Source: Roseibacillus sp.
Lineage (GTDB): Bacteria > Verrucomicrobiota > Verrucomicrobiia > Verrucomicrobiales > Akkermansiaceae
Assembly (NCBI GenBank): GCA_965242925.1
Contig: CBDEUM010000038.1
Span: 96,001-160,000, forward strand
Length of the DNA stretch: 64,000 nucleotides
Reading direction: 5' to 3'
Part shown: positions 7,338-19,286 of the stretch, piece after piece
How positions within the stretch are numbered: position 1 is the stretch's first letter
Layout: every line of letters starts with the position of its first letter
The notes under the pieces: model-generated
The model's database searches: none
What the model saw: only the letters and a program-made list of their open reading frames with translations
What the model was told of the DNA's origin: nothing
Made by a program: the position numbers and the translations under genes

Positions 7338-8240
7338 TCAATTCCGGTTTTCGGCAGGGTCAGTTGCTGCCGGAGAAGATCTGTGCCGTGCTTTGAGCCA
7401 TGGATCGAGGAAGTTGGCGATGATGATGAGGACAGTGCCGAGGTAGAAGGCAGGATGCAGTTGCTCGTACTCGTGGAAGAGGATGGCCCCGAGGAGAATG
7501 CCCCAGACGGGCTCGAAGTTCATGGTGAGATTGGCCGTGTAGGCGGTCAACCGGCGAAGGAGGTGAATGTTCCAGGTGTGAGCCACGGTGGTGCAGAGCA
7601 GGGCGAGGGTGAGAAGCGGCAACCAGTCGCGCCCGGTCGGGATCTGGAAGTGATGAGGGGAGATGAGGGGGAGAACGAGGGCTGCCATGAGGCATGCCCC
7701 GGCCATCTCGTAGAGGAGCATGCTGCGGGAAGGGGTTCCCCGGGCCACCAGTTGCCGGTTGAGGACGGGAAAGATGGAGTGAAGCAGGGCTCCCATCAGG
7801 CCCACCAGGAGGCCGAGGCGGTGGTCGTTGCCAAGGTTTCCAGCGATAAACAGAATTCCTGCAATGACGATTCCCCCGCAGAGCAACTCGCCCGGGTGGA
7901 TGGGTCTTCGTTCGATGAGGGGTTCGGTGATGGCCGTGAAGAGGGAGATGGTGGCAAAGGCAGCAAGGGCCACGGACACGTTGGAGAGGGAGATCGACCA
8001 GAAAAAGCAGACCCAATGAGCCCCTTGGAGTAATCCAAGTCCGAGGACGGCCAGCAACCGGCGGCGGGGGAGACGAAGGAGGGCAGGATTGATAGCCGCC
8101 AGCCAGAGTGCCATGGCAAGTCCCGCAATGAAGACGCGCCAGAAAACGAGGGAGGGTGCCTCGATCGAGATGATGCGTCCCAGCACCGCGGTGAGGGCGA
8201 GAATGAAAACGAGGAAATGATATTGGAGTAACGGTTTTAT
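7338..8240 (-). CDS. DMT/EamA family transporter
   Basis: About 10 TM helices, VFWRV and NFEPVWGILL motifs. The ORF track starts at 8186, but the first helix continues in frame to an ATA codon at 8240. Confidence 0.85.
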   Translation of the reverse strand: MKPLLQYHFLVFILALTAVLGRIISIEAPSLVFWRVFIAGLAMALWLAAINPALLRLPRRRLLAVLGLGLLQGAHWVCFFWSISLSNVSVALAAFATISLFTAITEPLIERRPIHPGELLCGGIVIAGILFIAGNLGNDHRLGLLVGLMGALLHSIFPVLNRQLVARGTPSRSMLLYEMAGACLMAALVLPLISPHHFQIPTGRDWLPLLTLALLCTTVAHTWNIHLLRRLTAYTANLTMNFEPVWGILLGAILFHEYEQLHPAFYLGTVLIIIANFLDPWLKARHRSSPAATDPAENRN

Positions 8241-8397
8241 GAGGAGCGGGGGTGAGGCTTTGTTCCGGAATGAAAGGGTGGATCGTGAAGGCAGTTCAGA
8301 TTGCGCGCCGCATGTCCACTGTCCACTGAATACTGGATGGACTGGTCCAGGTTACGGACCGCTTGATCTCTCTGCTCTTTCGCCATACAGTGAGGCA

Positions 8398-9999
8398 GTG
8401 ACTCCCCCCAGTATCTTCAACGATGTGCTCGGTCCCGTGATGCGGGGTCCTTCGAGTTCGCACAGCGCGGCCTCGTTGCGAATCGGGCGACTGGCGCGTG
8501 ATCTGATGGGAGGTGATGTGAAGGAGGTGGTGGTGGAGTATGATCCCAACGGCGCACTGGTCACCACGCATGAGTCGCAGGGATCGGACCTGGGGCTCTT
8601 TGGTGGTTTGATGGGATGGCAAACGGATGACGAGCGTCTCCCGGATTTCCGCGAGGAGATCGAGGAGGCAGGAATCAAGGTGGAGATCCGGTACGTGAGC
8701 TATGGGGCGGAGCACCCCAATACCTACAAACTGACCCTTCGCAACCGGGATGAGGAGCGGACCATGCAGGCGATCTCGACCGGGGGTGGCATGATCGTCG
8801 TGCAGAAAATCGAGGGTGCCGGGGTTGAAATAGAGGGCGATTACTACGAGACGCTCGTTTTTCTTTCCGATGCCGGAGCGGCTGATGGACTGGTTGGTTG
8901 GCTCTCGAGCAGCTTTTCCTTCGAAGAGGTTCAGGTCCGACCGGGGGGCAAGGAGATGTTGATTGAGATCAGGAGCCGTAGTGCGCTCGACGAGGAACTG
9001 CTGGCGGAACTCAGGGGCAATCCGGCGGTCTCGGTGGTGCGCGTGCTCCATCCGGTCCTCCCGGTGCTGTCCCGCCGGGATCTCTCCGTTCCCTGGTTGC
9101 GCTGCGCGGAGATGGAATCCTACCGGGAATGCAGGGGCGGTGAGACCGGTCTGGGCGAGCTGGGCGCGATTTACGAAGGTGAGCGCGGTGGTATTTCGGT
9201 GGAGGAGGTCAGGGAGCGTATGGGCAGGCTGGTTGAGACGATGGAGGGTTCGATCCAGACCGGGTTGCAGGGAACCAGTTTCGCTGACCGGATTCTTCCG
9301 GCGCAGTCACCGCGTTTTGCCGAAAGGATGAAGGGGGGGGAGCTGGTGCCGGGTGATGTGCTTAACCGGATGATCATGTATGTCTCTTCCCTGATGGAAG
9401 TGAAGAGCTCCATGGGGGTCATCGTGGCAGCTCCGACGGCGGGAAGTTGTGGTGCCCTTCCGGGGGCTGTTCTCGGGGTGGCCGATGCCCTGGGCAAGAG
9501 CCGCGAGGAACGGATCGAGGCGATGCTGGCGGCGGGCATGATCGGGGTGTTCATTGCAGCCCACTCGACTTTTGCGGCGGAAGAGGCGGGTTGCATGGCG
9601 GAGTGCGGATCGGGCGCGGCCATGGCAGCGGCAGGAATCGTCCTCTTGATGGAAGGGAGCTTCGAACAACAGATGGGGGCCGCGTCCATGGCCCTGCAGA
9701 ACTCCCTGGGGATGACCTGTGATACGCTCGCCAACCGGGTGGAAGCTCCCTGTCTCGGTCGCAATGTGACCGCAGCTTCCAATGCGCTTTCCTCTGCCAA
9801 CATGGCACTGGCGGACTATCAGCACCTTGTCCCCTTTGACGAGGTCGTAGACGCCATGAAACAGGTGGGCGATCTCATGCCGCGCGAGATCTGCTGCACA
9901 GGACTCGGTGGATTGGCCATCACGCCGACATCGAAAGCCTGGGAAGAACAACTGGCCCGCGGGTGTGGAACCTGCGGGAAGGTGGAGGTGGAATCCTAA
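8398..9999 (+). CDS. Fe-S-dependent L-serine dehydratase, fused beta-ACT-alpha form
   Basis: GPVMRGPSSSH (beta), IVAAPTAGSCG, AGCMAECG, LGMTCD (alpha). Start placed at GTG 8398. Confidence 0.9.
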   Translation: MTPPSIFNDVLGPVMRGPSSSHSAASLRIGRLARDLMGGDVKEVVVEYDPNGALVTTHESQGSDLGLFGGLMGWQTDDERLPDFREEIEEAGIKVEIRYVSYGAEHPNTYKLTLRNRDEERTMQAISTGGGMIVVQKIEGAGVEIEGDYYETLVFLSDAGAADGLVGWLSSSFSFEEVQVRPGGKEMLIEIRSRSALDEELLAELRGNPAVSVVRVLHPVLPVLSRRDLSVPWLRCAEMESYRECRGGETGLGELGAIYEGERGGISVEEVRERMGRLVETMEGSIQTGLQGTSFADRILPAQSPRFAERMKGGELVPGDVLNRMIMYVSSLMEVKSSMGVIVAAPTAGSCGALPGAVLGVADALGKSREERIEAMLAAGMIGVFIAAHSTFAAEEAGCMAECGSGAAMAAAGIVLLMEGSFEQQMGAASMALQNSLGMTCDTLANRVEAPCLGRNVTAASNALSSANMALADYQHLVPFDEVVDAMKQVGDLMPREICCTGLGGLAITPTSKAWEEQLARGCGTCGKVEVES

Positions 10000-11404: not shown

Positions 11405-12655
11405 CTACTCGACCCGGAAAGAACGGGTCCGGCGGCCGAAGAAATCCTCAGCCACGGCTTTGCTTCTGATGTTGAGGAGTTTGGTTTCGAAGCCGGAGGT
11501 GAGCCAGACGTGAGCGAAGTGGCCGGATTGTGATTCTTTCCCGGGGGGGAGGACCACGGCGGAGGTCACCCGCCTTCCCAGAGTGATCCGGTAGACGCGG
11601 TTGGGTGGAAGGGTGATACGGGTGTGCACATTGAGTTTGGTGAAGTAACCGCTGCGGCGGTGAGCCACCTCGCTTCCATCCTCGACGAAGATACGCTTGT
11701 TCTGCAGTCGGGTCCCGGGGAATCCGATTCCACGGGACTCCGTTTCGAGAAGGAGGTTGTCGCCCCCGGCGAGTTCAAGGGATCCTTCGAGGTCAAGGGT
11801 GATATGGATGGTGTCGGGCAGGCGTTTCACTTCTTCCCTGATCAGGGTGGTGGTGTTGTCCCTCGCATAGGGAAAAGACAGGCAGGTTGTGCCGATCACG
11901 GCGAAAAGGGCCACCAGGATGCCGAAGGGAGCCCAGGCCGGAATGTGTTCTCCAACCGGTGTCTTTGGTTCGTAGAGAGCCTTGCGGTGCAGTCCGAAGA
12001 CATGGAACAGGGCAGCCGAGGCGAACCAGACTACAGCCGCGGACCAGAGGATATCGCTGGCGAAGTGCAGGCCCTGTGCCAGGCATGCCACCCCGATACA
12101 GGTGCCGTAGGTCCCGGCCGCCACGATGACCAGGATGCCTGTCTTTCGTCGCCGACAGGCGAGCAGGGCAAGGCCGGCGGCAAAGAAGTAGAACCCCATG
12201 GAGGCGGGGACGCTGACGAAGGAATGGCCTTCGGTAGCGGGATCGATTGCCAGGAGCCGTTCGAATGGATCCGCTCCGCCCAGACCCTCGGTTTCATTTG
12301 GTCGGGGACGACCCCAGTGTTCCTTGAGAAGGAAATTGGCGACGAGGCCGGGCCCGGCGAGGAGGGTGAGAACGAGGAAAGCAGAGAGTTTCCGGGAGGA
12401 GGCAAGTCGGTGTCGTCCCATGCCGAGCACGAGGACAGAGAGGGCTACCGCAGCCACGACAAGGGCCGGAATGGCGCCAAGGCGGTAGAACTGAAGCCAG
12501 GGAGGTTTGCCGGAGTAGGTCCAGAGATTGGCTTTCTCATTGTAGAACTGCCGGGCGATCTCCATGTCGAGTTCGCCGGACAGAAAGGGCAGGGACCCTC
12601 CTGCGAGGAGCACCGCAGGGATGAGATAGAGAACGAGGATCCAGCGCCTGGTCAC
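11405..12655 (-). CDS. PAP2-family membrane phosphatase (LpxF-like) with C-terminal extension
   Basis: KEHWGRPRP, HFASD, several TM helices; the usual PSGH motif reads VSVP here. Start placed at GTG 12655 because a terminator overlaps the longer ORF start. Confidence 0.78.
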   Translation of the reverse strand: MTRRWILVLYLIPAVLLAGGSLPFLSGELDMEIARQFYNEKANLWTYSGKPPWLQFYRLGAIPALVVAAVALSVLVLGMGRHRLASSRKLSAFLVLTLLAGPGLVANFLLKEHWGRPRPNETEGLGGADPFERLLAIDPATEGHSFVSVPASMGFYFFAAGLALLACRRRKTGILVIVAAGTYGTCIGVACLAQGLHFASDILWSAAVVWFASAALFHVFGLHRKALYEPKTPVGEHIPAWAPFGILVALFAVIGTTCLSFPYARDNTTTLIREEVKRLPDTIHITLDLEGSLELAGGDNLLLETESRGIGFPGTRLQNKRIFVEDGSEVAHRRSGYFTKLNVHTRITLPPNRVYRITLGRRVTSAVVLPPGKESQSGHFAHVWLTSGFETKLLNIRSKAVAEDFFGRRTRSFRVE

Positions 12656-12791
12656 GGGAGGGAGGATGGTGGGGTTGAGTATCCAGTGTCCAGTTTTCAG
12701 TATGGCCGGACGGGCTCCGGGCGGGGAGGGTTGCCGGTCCGGGTCACGGACCTGATCGTGGTCAGATCCCGCAAAGGTCCGAGTCGGCCCC

Positions 12792-12822
12792 AAAAAACCG
12801 GGAACCTGGCGGTTCCCGGTTC
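12792..12822 (-). terminator. Rho-independent terminator after the downstream glnII
   Basis: Minus strand AACCGGGAACC-GCCA-GGTTCCCGGTT-TTTT. Confidence 0.85.
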
Positions 12823-13918: not shown

Positions 13919-13953
13919 AAAAACGGCCAACCCCGCTGGAGGATTGGCCGTTT
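13919..13953 (-). terminator. Rho-independent terminator between the two glnII genes
   Basis: Minus strand AAACGGCCAA...TTGGCCGTTT-TT. Confidence 0.75.
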
Positions 13954-14998: not shown

Positions 14999-15095
14999 GT
15001 CGTGTTCTAGTCGGGTTGCGATTACCGCGGCACATCACACGGCACGGATCCGGAAAGCGGAGCCATGTCGCGGGGCCTTGGAGGCACTCATATGA

Positions 15096-15112
15096 AGCAG
15101 TGGCCGTGCCAA
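15096..15112 (-). promoter_or_regulatory. Sigma54 (-24/-12) promoter upstream of glnII copy B
   Basis: Minus strand TTGGCACGGCCACTGCT matches TGGCAC-N5-TTGC with one mismatch and correct GG-N10-GC spacing. Confidence 0.8.
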
Positions 15113-15140: not shown

Positions 15141-16355
15141 TCAAAGTTGGGCAATCTGGGCCACGATAAGGGTTGCATCGTCGTCGCGGCTGTTTTCCCG
15201 TGCCCGGGTGAGGATCCTGTGGGCCAGGTCTGTGGGTTCACCGTGGCGGGCCAGTTCCGTTGCCAGTCCACGCTCCCAGAGCCCGTCGATGAGACCGTCG
15301 GTGCAGAGAAGAAGGCGGTCATCGTTCTGGAGGGGATGAGATTCGATTTGCGGGTGAATGCCGGAGTGACCGCCCCCGAGGGCGTCATAGAGGGCGCTGC
15401 GACGTGGATGGGCGCGGTAGGCGAACTCATTGATTTCTCCACGGTTCCACTGTCCCCAGGCCCGGGTGTGATCAGCTGTGAGCTGGGTGGTTTTCTCCGC
15501 CCGGTGGAGATAGAGACGGGAGTCGCCGAGGTGGGCGAAATGCAGGTGTCCGGGGCTGAGCCAGACGAGGGTGAGAGTGGCGCCCATCCCGTGCAGATTG
15601 GACTCCTCCGCGGCGAGGGCGTTTAATCCCTCATGGGCGTTTTGCATGAGTTGGCGCAGCACGGATGAGGCTTCTTCCTCTCCATGGCAGTGAAGGGCCT
15701 CGTATAGATCTCCGGCCTTTCGCTTGACTGCGGCGAGGATCAGGCGGGAGGCGAGTTCGCCCGCGGAGCCCCCTCCCATGCCATCGGAGACGGCGAGGAC
15801 GAGATGCGACGGTTCAAGGAGGGCTTCGCCCTGGGCCTCGAACCGGCGTGCGCCTCCCGGACTGACTTCGAGGGCGAGGTAGGCGTCATCGTTGGAGTCG
15901 CGCATGGTTCCGCCTTCTGAGAGGGAGCACCAGGTCACCTTCCAGATCCCGCTGTTCTCTCGTTCGATGCCGCCGCGTTCGGGAAGGATTTCCGCAAGTT
16001 CAAAGTCAATGAGGCAGAAACGCCCGAGGCGGGGGCAGTAGGTGACATTGCGGGGTTCGGGATCATCGTGGCGCAAGCCGTAGTCCCGCTCAAGGTCGGC
16101 GAAAAGGGCATCGGACTTGGTGCGTGAGATCTCGGGAGCGGGTTGTCCGCAGTTGGTGGTGACGATGTAGTGCTCTTCCGGTCGGTGTTCCAGAAGTCGG
16201 GGAACGTAGGGGCAGCCACGCTCTTCGAGAGCCTTGAGGATACGCGCCTCATTCTCACAGCGTTCACCCTTTTGGTGACCCTTGAACTTTTTGTGCACCT
16301 GCCCCTTGAAGTCGATGCGGACGTGGGAGCGGATGCCATCCTTGAGGTCCTTCAC
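15141..16355 (-). CDS. Fusion of a minimal protein-kinase-like domain and a PP2C/PPM Ser/Thr phosphatase
   Basis: First ~125 aa: HKKF, ENEARIL, HDDPEPRNV, IDFELA. C-terminal part: NDDA, VSDGMGG, MGATLT, HLGDSRLY, LLCTDGL, DDAT. Confidence 0.85.
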   Translation of the reverse strand: MKDLKDGIRSHVRIDFKGQVHKKFKGHQKGERCENEARILKALEERGCPYVPRLLEHRPEEHYIVTTNCGQPAPEISRTKSDALFADLERDYGLRHDDPEPRNVTYCPRLGRFCLIDFELAEILPERGGIERENSGIWKVTWCSLSEGGTMRDSNDDAYLALEVSPGGARRFEAQGEALLEPSHLVLAVSDGMGGGSAGELASRLILAAVKRKAGDLYEALHCHGEEEASSVLRQLMQNAHEGLNALAAEESNLHGMGATLTLVWLSPGHLHFAHLGDSRLYLHRAEKTTQLTADHTRAWGQWNRGEINEFAYRAHPRRSALYDALGGGHSGIHPQIESHPLQNDDRLLLCTDGLIDGLWERGLATELARHGEPTDLAHRILTRARENSRDDDATLIVAQIAQL

Positions 16356-16541
16356 GTAAGCCCAGTGAAGAGGCAGCAGGGAAGAAGGGGAAGATGAAAG
16401 TATGAGGAGAGGGAAGATGGGTAATCGGTGCGACCGGATGGGATCGGGTTGAGCCGGAACGGTGTTGTCTCGGTTGGAGCTCAGGGAGGTTTTCTATCCT
16501 TTCCTTGACCTTTAGGGGCAAGAAAGAGATTGTGGAGGAGC

Positions 16542-17174
16542 GTGGAAAAGGTCGAGATTCCAAAGAAGGCGATCTACCGTCTTTCGATATACCAGCGCGG
16601 CCTCAGCAAGTTGCAGGAGAACGGGAAGGAGACGGTGAGCTCTTCCGCACTTGCAGGAGCGGCCGGGGTGAAGCCCGCGCAGCTGCGCAAGGATCTGGCC
16701 TACTTCGGCCAGTTCGGAAAGCGTGGGCTGGGCTATTCCGTATCGGAGCTGCGGGATGCGATCCTGGAGGTACTGGGGCGGGAGCAACTGCAGCCCGTGG
16801 TCATGGTGGGGGCCGGAAACCTGGGAGTGGCCCTGCTGCGCTATCGTGGATTTGAGAAGGGGGGGTTTGAAGTGGTGGCGGCCTTTGACGCCGTGCCGGA
16901 GACGGTAATTGCACGGGGAATTTCTGTTCCGGTCTACGGGCAGGATGAGGTGGCTCGCTTCGTGCGGGAGAACGAGGTGAAGCTGGCTATTCTCTGTGTT
17001 CCGGGTGGAGTGGCCCAGGAAGCCGCCAACGAACTGGTGGATGCAGGGGTGCAGGGAATTCTTAATTTTTCTCCTACCCTGCTGCAGGTCCCCGAAGCAG
17101 TCACTGTCAACAACGTGGATCTCGCCCTGGAGTTGGAGAATCTCTCCTATTTCGTGAGCAAGGGAGAGGAATGA
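16542..17174 (+). CDS. rex: Redox-sensing transcriptional repressor Rex
   Basis: RLSIY, LRKDLAYFGQFGKRGLGY, VGAGNLG, GILNF; GGAGG RBS before GTG 16542. Confidence 0.95.
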   Translation: MEKVEIPKKAIYRLSIYQRGLSKLQENGKETVSSSALAGAAGVKPAQLRKDLAYFGQFGKRGLGYSVSELRDAILEVLGREQLQPVVMVGAGNLGVALLRYRGFEKGGFEVVAAFDAVPETVIARGISVPVYGQDEVARFVRENEVKLAILCVPGGVAQEAANELVDAGVQGILNFSPTLLQVPEAVTVNNVDLALELENLSYFVSKGEE

Positions 17175-17301
17175 GGTTGAGGAGAGCCTTGGCTTCCCGC
17201 GTTGGCGGTAGATTCCCCGGGTGCCGATAAAGGTGCGGATATTTCGCAAATAGGCCTAAGAATCTCTTTGCCAACGCGTTTCTGATGTAGTTTGAGCCCT
17301 G

Positions 17302-17841
17302 ATGGGCCGGTATGAGAACATGGTTGAGACTCACGAGCAATTCGTGGAGCAGGCCCTTGCCCAGTACGAGGGACCGCTTATCGGATACGCTTTGGGGATT
17401 GTGCATGACCTCGATCGGGCTCGCGACGTTGTCCAGGACACCTTCATCCGGCTCTACCAGCAGGATCGGGAGAAAGTGCAGCGGGGGCTCAAGGCATGGC
17501 TCTTCACGGTCTGCCGGAACCGGGCTCTCGACATCCTCCGCAAGGAGAAGCGGATGGTGGCTCTGGTTGACGAGAAGGCCGAGCGCCTGGAGGGAACCAC
17601 TGCAACTCCGGATCGCGTTGCGGACTGGGACGAGCGGGTGGCCCAGGTAATGAATGCCCTGGATCGGCTCTCCGACAACCAGAGGGAGGTTATCAGACTG
17701 AAATTCCAGCAAGAACTCAGCTATAAGGAAATCAGCGAAGCGACCGGCCTTGCGCCGGGCAATGTCGGCTTTCTGCTGCACACCGGATTGAAACGTTTGC
17801 GGGCCCTCCTTCCGGAAGACCTGCTGGAAAATTCCATGTGA
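17302..17841 (+). CDS. ECF sigma factor
   Basis: DVVQDTF, AWLFTVCRN (region 2); LSDNQREV...LSYKEIS (region 4). Confidence 0.93.
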   Translation: MGRYENMVETHEQFVEQALAQYEGPLIGYALGIVHDLDRARDVVQDTFIRLYQQDREKVQRGLKAWLFTVCRNRALDILRKEKRMVALVDEKAERLEGTTATPDRVADWDERVAQVMNALDRLSDNQREVIRLKFQQELSYKEISEATGLAPGNVGFLLHTGLKRLRALLPEDLLENSM

Positions 17842-19286
17842 AAACAATGAAGCGTATTGATTCTGAAGATCCCCGCGTGACGGCTTATGCCCTGGGTGAG
17901 TTACCTGAACATGAGGAGGCTGAACTGCGCCGTGTCGCGGAGGAGCATCCCGCCGTGCAGGCTGCTCTGGACGAGACTCGTGCGCTTGCCGGGTTGATCC
18001 GGGGTGGTTTCAGGGGGGAGAGTCTGGAACTGGGGGAGGCTCGGCGGGAAGCGATCCGCCGGGCCGGGCGCAGTCCGGTCCCCGAGAACCTGGTTTCCAT
18101 CCAATCCCGCCGGTGTGACTGGTTCCGTCCCGCGGTAGTTGCGGCGGTGGCGGCGGCGTTGGTGGTCTGCGTGCTCTGGATGATGCAGCAGATCCCCGTA
18201 GGTGAGAACGAACTTGTGCGGGAGGCGACCAAAGCCGAGCAGCGGCAAGCGGTCCGGATGCAGATTCTCCTCAGCCCCACGCCCCGGTCGGCGCGACCCA
18301 TCGCGGGGGGCGCGCCTCTTCCCCGGGCGTCCGGGGAGGAGGCCTACCCCATTCTGCCGGAAGTCCCGTCCGAGGTTGTGGACGAAGAGTATCTCGCCCT
18401 GCGCGGGCTCTGGCAGAAGGATCCCGACGCATTTTTCGAGAGAGTGCGCAGCGCAGCGCGGGAGATAAACCTTCCGGTCCTGAGTCGCATGGCGTTCCTG
18501 ACGGACAATCCCTTCATCTCCACGCGGGAAGAGGCGAGCTCGATCATTCCCATCGTTTCCGGAACTGCCAGCTATCACCTGGTAGAGCGGTTTATCCGTA
18601 ACGAAAAAAGGTTGCCGCCGCCGAACAGCGTGCGCACGGAGGAGTTGATCAATCAGGTGTCCTACCCTGGCGATGGAGATGCGGACCTGGATGGGATCAA
18701 GCTGGGAGTTGAGATTGTGCGCTGTCCCTGGGACCGGGAATTGGCCCTCCTGGGGGTGCTCCTCCGTAATGAGTCCGGGAGAGTGATCGCTGAGGACGCA
18801 GTGTTGCAGGTTGAGGCGGATCCTGAGTTCGTCGGGAGCTACCGCCTGATTGGCTACGCTGGCCGGTCGGATCCGGAGGGAGAGGGCGGAGTTTCGGGAG
18901 GGCTCTTCCCGGGGAAATCAAACTATGTGCTCTATCAGTTCCGACCATCCGCTCCGGAAATCTTCAACGCCCACCGGGTGGTGGCGAGAGTGAGTTTGGG
19001 TGTCGGAGCGGAGGGCAGTGAGCTGATTGTGCCGGTGACCACCCCGCCCCGGGAGTGGGAGCTGTCCAGCAACAACCTCCAGACGGCGGTGGCTCTGGCT
19101 ACGTGGGGGATGGTCTTGCGGCAGTCTCCCTTCGGCGGGCCTCTTACCCACCTGCATATCAGGGAATTCGCAGAGAATGCCCTCCATGGTAGTGATTCGT
19201 CCGATCTCAGACGACGGGAGGCCCTGCAACTGATCCTCGATTCGTTGCCCTTCTTCGAGATTGAGCCGGAAGAGAATGAGAACTGA
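17838..19286 (+). CDS. Membrane anti-sigma-like protein with YfbK-type flanking domains but no VWA core
   Basis: N-terminal TAYALGEL, one TM helix, DNPF...TASY...LPP...VRTEELIN, then YRLIGY; start overlaps the sigma stop. Confidence 0.72.
   Translation: MKTMKRIDSEDPRVTAYALGELPEHEEAELRRVAEEHPAVQAALDETRALAGLIRGGFRGESLELGEARREAIRRAGRSPVPENLVSIQSRRCDWFRPAVVAAVAAALVVCVLWMMQQIPVGENELVREATKAEQRQAVRMQILLSPTPRSARPIAGGAPLPRASGEEAYPILPEVPSEVVDEEYLALRGLWQKDPDAFFERVRSAAREINLPVLSRMAFLTDNPFISTREEASSIIPIVSGTASYHLVERFIRNEKRLPPPNSVRTEELINQVSYPGDGDADLDGIKLGVEIVRCPWDRELALLGVLLRNESGRVIAEDAVLQVEADPEFVGSYRLIGYAGRSDPEGEGGVSGGLFPGKSNYVLYQFRPSAPEIFNAHRVVARVSLGVGAEGSELIVPVTTPPREWELSSNNLQTAVALATWGMVLRQSPFGGPLTHLHIREFAENALHGSDSSDLRRREALQLILDSLPFFEIEPEENEN

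Follow-up and report, generated by a model that had tools for sequence, protein, structure and literature searches.

The window analysed here, a stretch of 64,000 nucleotides from a Roseibacillus sp. contig, carries a single open reading frame in which a minimal kinase domain is joined to a PP2C/PPM phosphatase domain (Table 1). Two genes for type II glutamine synthetase (GSII, encoded by glnII) follow on the same strand, after gaps of 142 and 116 bases. A first-pass annotation, made from the letters of the DNA, had read the locus as a kinase-like domain with its catalytic elements but without the substrate-binding part of the C-lobe, joined to a PPM phosphatase and adjacent to two co-oriented GSII genes. 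Each of these features was recovered: K22 (in VHKKF), E36 (NEARIL), H96, D98 and N103 (HDDPEPRN) and D117-F118-E119 could be located; the AlphaFold2 model of the kinase part ends a few residues past the DFE; residues 138–403 are a PP2C domain; and both GSII genes lie downstream of the fusion. Homologous fusions share the start residue of the window's protein and a length of about 401–410 residues, and most of the best 120 of 5199 matches obtained with the complete protein are themselves full-length fusions, the named ones from Verrucomicrobia. The closest genome loci belong to Akkermansiaceae/Roseibacillus. Sequencing run X19, possibly the source of this DNA, has the reading frame's stretch unbroken with 0 differences.

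Table 1. Features at the fusion locus, in window positions
Feature	Position	Strand	Description
Mini-kinase/PP2C fusion gene	15141..16355	-	GTG start, stop included, 404 aa; AlphaFold2 pLDDT 92.0, pTM 0.90
Mini-kinase domain, aa 1-127	15975..16355	-	K22, E36, H96, D98, N103, D117-F-E; stops past the metal-binding loop
PP2C/PPM phosphatase domain, aa 138-404	15144..15944	-	Metal-ligand D157, D191, D353, D392 kept
glnII type A, rhizobial-type GSII, 338 aa	13982..14998	-	Conserved partner, likely substrate; flap T272-S279
Second glnII, type B, 333 aa	12864..13865	-	~59% identity with the type-A gene; scattered occurrence in close relatives
Sigma-54-type -24/-12 site of first glnII	15096..15111	-	Predicted start near 15085
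Terminator-like hairpin, 3' of first glnII	13922..13939	-	Weak: 5 such sites in 4 kb against 3.0 expected
Rex repressor gene, divergent	16530..17174	+	Neighbour in just 11/80 loci; outside the module

The surroundings of these genes hold several other features. Rex, an ECF-type sigma factor and a vWF/YfbK-domain protein (16530–19286) are transcribed away from the fusion and linked to it in close relatives only. Downstream of the second glnII lies a PAP2/LpxF-like membrane phosphatase (11405–12793) with a long C-terminal extension that has no Pfam match, and at 8239–9999 the beta and alpha chains of serine dehydratase are fused in one 586-residue frame.

The first-pass reading had been staked on a kinase fold, and AlphaFold2 prediction together with fold comparison returns one. 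Predicted alone (pLDDT 90.8), the domain holds an N-lobe, helix alpha-C, a single C-lobe helix, the catalytic loop and the metal-binding loop, and thus the features of the protein-kinase-like superfamily: a bilobal fold, the beta3 Lys, the alpha-C Glu, HxDxxxxN and the metal-binding Asp. K22, E36, H96, D98, N103, D117, F118 and E119 are invariant in 170/170 kinase copies from all fetched loci. The Hanks-type activation segment and subdomains VIII–XI are absent, the domain stopping at about residue 125; stand-alone homologues have 125–150 residues. Sequence profiles place the domain loosely: residues 1–127 match APH (E 4.1e-5) and Bud32 (E 1.7e-4) weakly, a PDB sequence search gave weak kinase matches only, and a Pfam search of the domain and its divergent members gave no Pkinase match. 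The domain falls outside the Bud32/PRPK family, scoring 21.2 bits against a cut-off of 125 for TIGR03724 and having PP2C and glnII as neighbours rather than a KEOPS context.

The closest structure to the predicted domain is the RNA kinase Ark1 of G. acetivorans (Foldseek E 1.7e-7; VIA Z 12.2, rmsd 2.6, 112 residues aligned, 24% identity), followed by Rio2 (Z 11.5), Bud32 (Z 11.4) and Rio1 (Z 10.7). Going by the model, the nearest folds are thus an RNA kinase and RIO/Bud32 enzymes and not classical protein kinases, which speaks against a switch acting on GSII. Could the protein be a kinase of RNA, like ArkI, or of small molecules, its linkage to PP2C and glnII being incidental? The rank of Ark1 and a weak APH match in 23/26 divergent members point that way. 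However, the Z values of Ark1, Rio2 and Bud32 lie within 1 of each other and are tied, with Foldseek concordant, and the core has a median net charge of about -2. In ArkI, a C-lobe helix with a YKR motif binds tRNA (PMC9095486); this basic alpha-7 helix and subdomains IX and XI have no counterpart in a model that stops after the DFE. The eraser of ArkI is KptA, whereas the phosphatase linked here is a PP2C. Taken with these points, we regard an RNA or small-molecule kinase as very improbable. OspG and NleH are absent from the fold matches listed for the kinase core, and a likeness to them is possible.

The phosphatase half is assigned more directly, with 63.8 bits to PF13672 against a cut-off of 24 (E 2e-17) and fold matches to PstP, Stp1 and tPphA (TM 0.87–0.89 to PstP by target length). 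Its metal ligands D157, D191, D353 and D392 are invariant in 135/135 copies. The domain lies outside the Stp1/IreP equivalog NF033484, at 144.4 bits against a cut-off of 230. Neither half of the fusion is a relic. A conserved beta-hairpin insert of this PP2C family, at residues ~165–180 (window 15815–15860) between the first two motifs, might offer the kinase or GSII a place to dock. One 381-residue fusion (P0276) combines an intact kinase half with a PP2C half that apparently lacks the catalytic motifs. A defence role for the module was considered and dropped: a PADLOC search gave no match for the kinase and a single weak one (2.4e-5) for PP2C.

The kinase family is small. A profile search of 1.84 billion representatives yielded 326 proteins at E <=0.001; stand-alone kinases of ~130–150 residues do exist, among 3336 matches of 69–223 residues that include fragments. 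Named members outside Verrucomicrobiota are from Planctomycetota, and the Atlas adds Planctomycetota members and one putative viral cluster (Uroviricota by features, rank 18). Six distant stand-alone relatives (P0343, P0346, P0347, P0354, P0362 and P0369) have 120–150 residues, P0354 being a tandem duplicate. A search of annotated phages for the module gave no match; viral contigs gave one full copy beside glnII and PP2C and otherwise weak partial matches. That copy, L192 (2377–5260 of a contig filed as viral), consists of glnII followed by a 420-residue kinase–PP2C fusion, and may stem from a host or represent an auxiliary metabolic cassette. The fused architecture stands for the window but does not hold as a rule: among 171 kinase cores from the loci, 54 are fused to PP2C, 114 are split from it and 3 run off their contig. 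A fast tree implies 7 changes between the two states, of which strongly supported branches force just 2.

The suggestion that the kinase belongs with nitrogen genes held up well, with homologues tied to glnII both by neighbourhood and by presence and absence. In a survey of 301 genomes drawn across Verrucomicrobiota, the kinase occurs in 56, the cognate PP2C in the identical 56, and GSII in 62 that include all 56. The 6 remaining GSII genomes belong to other classes, and their GSII is a separate type at 56–60% identity. Losses within families coincide for all three genes (f5, 20/21; f6, 20/26; f10, 4/5), and genus g2 has 0/22 for each. Among 101 close relatives, 84 carry kinase and GSII and 13 carry neither; 2 have the kinase only, in genomes that are 84–85% complete, and 2 have GSII only, at 59% identity. 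Fisher tests on the 301 genomes overstate the association because kin are not independent.

Physical linkage is similarly strong. The kinase lies <=2 kb from glnII in 50/56 genomes (49 divergent, 1 co-oriented), and it adjoins or is fused with PP2C in 53/56. Of 541 genome loci, the best 80 were examined, a set weighted towards close kin; at a distance of up to 8 kb, GSII is present in 50/80 and PP2C in 65/80; the gene order is mostly that of the window, with 14 loci having the kinase alone and 1 cut. Five of the genomes with a lone kinase were tested, and all three genes are kept in 5/5, with PP2C adjoining glnII in 4/5. Of 81 metagenome and viral loci (the best 80 of 519 plus one viral contig), 74 have PP2C and 45 have GSII, the latter rising to 26/37 where flanks are long. 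Five of these loci show a third gene order, glnII then kinase, and include 2 GSII clusters named Planctomycetaceae/Pirellulales. In one genome (L090, G081:C1:70583-72535), PP2C adjoins a GSII that groups with rhizobial GlnII and has a different flap sequence; the native GSII and kinase of that genome are on other contigs.

Might the genes simply have hitch-hiked with glnII in one old transfer, with no functional tie? All carriers are related, coming from one class plus Planctomycetota, and the pairwise distances of kinase and GSII correlate to the degree expected from kinship alone; a mirror-tree value (rho 0.52) lacked a neutral control and was left out of the evidence. The linkage nevertheless persists although gene order takes three forms and the genes have fused or split repeatedly, the genes are lost together exactly inside families, and they are retained together where they have separated. 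We therefore consider passive hitch-hiking extremely improbable: a minimal kinase and a PP2C locked to GSII are a real and conserved module.

The module's distribution complements that of GlnE, the adenylyltransferase of type I glutamine synthetase (GSI). Counting GlnE as a two-domain protein (E <1e-25) and canonical GSI at E <1e-150, in genomes that are related and hence not independent, GlnE occurs in 26/301 genomes and in 2/56 kinase carriers; these two, G001 and G246, have both systems. Another 47 genomes with weak single PF03710 matches (E 1e-8 to 1e-4, frames of ~940 residues) were dropped as probable cross-hits to GlnD, a check made in the window's own, GlnD-bearing genome. Within the class, taken as families f1–f18 (101 genomes, with f11 and f15 placed by assumption from the ordering), 12/14 GlnE genomes are without the trio. 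Canonical GSI is found in the 26 GlnE genomes and one more (G297), and so in 3/56 carriers; some carriers, and also the window's genome, have GSI-like paralogues below the canonical mark. No PF03710 match was found in the fusion protein or in the window's genome, which is 89.9% complete, and so GlnE was not found there; nor was GSIII in a search of the same genome. This near-exclusion matches the pattern expected of a replacement switch, but it may also be a simple mirror of the exchange of GSI for GSII.

The window's genome does have PII and GlnD, and PII offers an alternative target. On that account the pair would act on Ser49 of PII, as do cyanobacterial PphA and its kinase, and its tie to glnII would reflect no more than a common nitrogen control. 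In cyanobacteria, PphA is the phosphatase that acts as the eraser of Ser49, while its kinase is described as still unidentified (PMC4285133). The PII of the window's genome (L110, G000:C14:391119-391436) has a cyanobacterial-type T-loop with S49 and Y51, a combination nearly invariant across the class; S49 is present in 33/33 T-loop matches from kinase-bearing genomes (a few loci overlap), and tPphA is among the fold matches of the PP2C. Ser49, however, occurs with and without the kinase, including in 23/27 T-loop matches from kinase-less genomes, and does not follow it. PII itself is present in 23/25 kinase-less genomes, so that its distribution, unlike that of GSII, is not that of the pair; a reading by eye of the 45 largest neighbour clusters recognised no PII gene, and GlnD is retained in the window's genome. 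A PII-directed pair is on balance unlikely.

Using a sigma-54 consensus and a search pattern drawn up after the window's copy had been seen, we found a sigma-54-type motif upstream of 94/110 type-A glnII genes, six rhizobial ones included, where shuffles predict 0.3, and upstream of 1/164 kinase genes. The second glnII of the window is without such a site. RNA contigs from 6/7 marine runs, each from another study, end at 15062–15084 and one reaches 15152; their ends near the predicted glnII start at 15085 are a weak hint. RNA contigs cover the kinase–PP2C gene piecewise in 2/7 runs, and expression cannot be ranked from them. Induction of glnII is therefore probably independent, with separate expression of the switch gene. 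A single operon of kinase–PP2C and both glnII genes is doubtful, given the sigma-54 site of glnII itself and the hairpin between the two glnII genes.

The same promoter evidence, with a divergent promoter region common to glnII and the kinase in 49/56 genomes, would suit a pair that targets another protein of the nitrogen regulon, such as a sigma-54 activator, AmtB or glutamate synthase, and affects glnII expression or flux indirectly. That reading seems quite unlikely, as no other gene co-clusters with the module, the next commonest true neighbours each being found in <=16/80 loci.

GSII is the likely substrate. The first-pass annotation had set the fusion beside both glnII genes; the partner is the first, rhizobial-type gene, the second being a local extra. 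Both have GlnII (NF041605) as their best NCBIfam match, at 366 and 396 bits, and both miss its cut-off of 500; their best PDB matches are GSII throughout (E 1e-88), and the window's GSII is 74% identical to Sinorhizobium (rhizobial) GlnII. In rhizobia, control of GSII is said to be mainly transcriptional (PMC5127829). A second, type-B GSII lies 3' of the first in some close relatives (L004, L007–L009, L011, L012 and L018); it is the sole GSII behind the fusion in L011 and L012, the L011 copy having a sigma-54 site, and in L018 it stands directly behind a stand-alone kinase. Type-B GSII may serve as a substrate, or else be an isoform that escapes regulation.

We modelled the kinase in complex with a pair of GSII chains, with ATP and Mg added, together with three controls. 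The kinase–GSII score was 0.57 (runs of 0.57, 0.55 and 0.60), against 0.02 for the best control; runs share >=97% of contacts and the partner pLDDT is >=89. The score mark was reached by 116/157 solved complexes and 2/215 mismatched pairs, but with a score of <=0.60 it was reached by just 18/157 solved complexes and by both of those mismatches. The predicted complex thus lends weak support to kinase–GSII binding, and, as such binding was likely beforehand, it raises the odds only a little.

Which residue might be modified was approached by contrasting 57 type-A, 14 type-B and 6 rhizobial GSII rows. No Ser, Thr or Tyr proved both invariant in and special to the kinase-linked GSII. S279 and T70 had looked promising against the six rhizobial sequences and were both rejected as markers: S279 is Ala in 5/57 type-A rows and present in 6/6 kinase-less GSII, and in the end no residue, T70 included, is unique to kinase-linked GSII. 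T272, which mammalian T301 matches in the alignment, is invariant in 57/57 type-A rows; neither it nor T277 varies anywhere, rhizobial GlnII included. T272, T277 and S279 are candidate phospho-sites. Phosphorylation of the glutamate-flap residue Thr301 by PKA is reported to lower mammalian GS activity by ~40% (PMC6536897), and by analogy Thr272 of the glutamate flap is a candidate site.

Bud32 and RIO enzymes act as ATPases or as assembly or activation factors, and they are the matches next to Ark1 (Z 11.5–10.7), so the mini-kinase could bind GSII in such a capacity, with PP2C resetting the kinase and not GSII. Without the C-lobe there is no groove to hold a peptide, the complex model is compatible with any kind of binding, and the residue contrast found no co-evolved phospho-acceptor in GSII. 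Against this, a strictly co-inherited and catalytically complete PP2C implies a stable phospho-Ser/Thr, and the 74% identical rhizobial GlnII is not known to need an ATPase or assembly factor of this kind. We hold this alternative to be improbable.

Several known systems resemble the module in part. First, GlnE is likewise a single bifunctional writer and eraser polypeptide for glutamine synthetase, acting on GSI (PMC9397018), and its genome set is complementary to that of the module. It differs in being built from nucleotidyltransferase folds, not a kinase and a PP2C, and in transferring AMP, where phosphoryl transfer is inferred here; the partner here is GSII, the genes are split in 114/168 copies and there is no evident sensor region. 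Second, ArkI/Ark1 (PDB 8yv4, 8yv5 and 7vnx), RIO1/RIO2 and Bud32/PRPK share a reduced kinase fold without an activation segment (Z 12.2–10.7). Unlike them, the module has a PP2C partner; identity is 15–24% and the Bud32 score 21 of 125 bits. The Ark1 chain has 173 residues against 127 here, where the domain ends after the DFE without the basic tRNA-binding helix. Third, PknB/PstP, Stk1/Stp1 and PrkC/PrpC also place a kinase beside a PPM phosphatase, and the phosphatase fold is that of PstP and Stp1. By contrast with these Hanks-type pairs, the module lacks subdomains VIII–XI and a membrane or PASTA sensor, its PP2C scores too low for Stp1 (144 bits, cut-off 230), and it has a fixed tie to one metabolic enzyme.

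Two further parallels concern the mode of action. PKA phosphorylates the glutamate flap of a type II GS and inhibits it (PMC6536897), at a residue kept here as T272; PKA is a general animal kinase, whereas the bacterial pair is dedicated and its site a candidate only. OspG and NleH are limited to approximately subdomains I–VII and need a bound partner for activity (PMC7943720), but they are secreted, host-directed effectors, whereas the module sits in a chromosomal housekeeping context. Among the papers listed from open PubMed Central and bioRxiv texts, none, judged by title and abstract, dealt with the kinase family or with a kinase or phosphatase of bacterial GSII. The module is apparently undescribed in print.

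Taken together, a role of some kind in nitrogen control is very probable for the module, and we favour, with moderate confidence, the reading of the fusion as a phospho-switch that acts on GSII in place of GlnE. The pair would switch GSII off by Ser/Thr phosphorylation and on again by dephosphorylation, filling for GSII the role that GlnE adenylylation has for type I enzymes. With its substrate-binding C-lobe absent, the kinase core would bind ATP-Mg and dock straight on the GSII ring, phosphorylating a residue at the entrance of the active site. The best candidate is the flap T272–S279, given that mammalian GS loses activity when its equivalent Thr301 is phosphorylated. Phosphorylated GSII would be the 'off' state, set on ammonium excess and sparing ATP and glutamate. 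As neither domain has a sensor module and the genomes keep PII and GlnD, the balance is probably set by PII/GlnD, or by direct binding of glutamine or 2-oxoglutarate. Transcription through sigma-54 would then be the slow control and the kinase/PP2C pair the fast one. Against a GSII switch, the enzyme functions without the pair in 6/62 genomes of the phylum and in 2 close relatives, and the same holds for rhizobia according to published descriptions. The absence of an acceptor residue special to kinase-linked GSII, the two systems side by side in G001 and G246, and the rhizobial-like GSII beside PP2C in G081 also count against it.

A bolder form of the same proposal would make the module a second, independently evolved master switch of bacterial nitrogen assimilation, in which a kinase of ~125 residues is completed by the GSII ring, phosphorylates the flap on ammonium excess, is reversed by its own PP2C under control of PII, and replaces GSI–GlnE across most free-living Verrucomicrobiae and part of Planctomycetota. 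This extended version is tentative, possible though less than probable. No kinase as small as this is known to have been characterised.

Control of bacterial GSII is described as mainly transcriptional, with fast covalent control reserved for GSI and GlnE (PMC5127829). With 53/56 sampled carriers having GSII and no canonical GSI, these bacteria need another way of shutting GSII down. The carriers are widespread in soil, freshwater and the sea, and the module provides a concrete and testable three-protein candidate for the shut-off, and the fused form in the window puts two of them into one polypeptide convenient for biochemical and structural work. If the switch is real, it would define a minimal protein-kinase family and give the flap phosphorylation known from mammalian GS a counterpart in bacteria.
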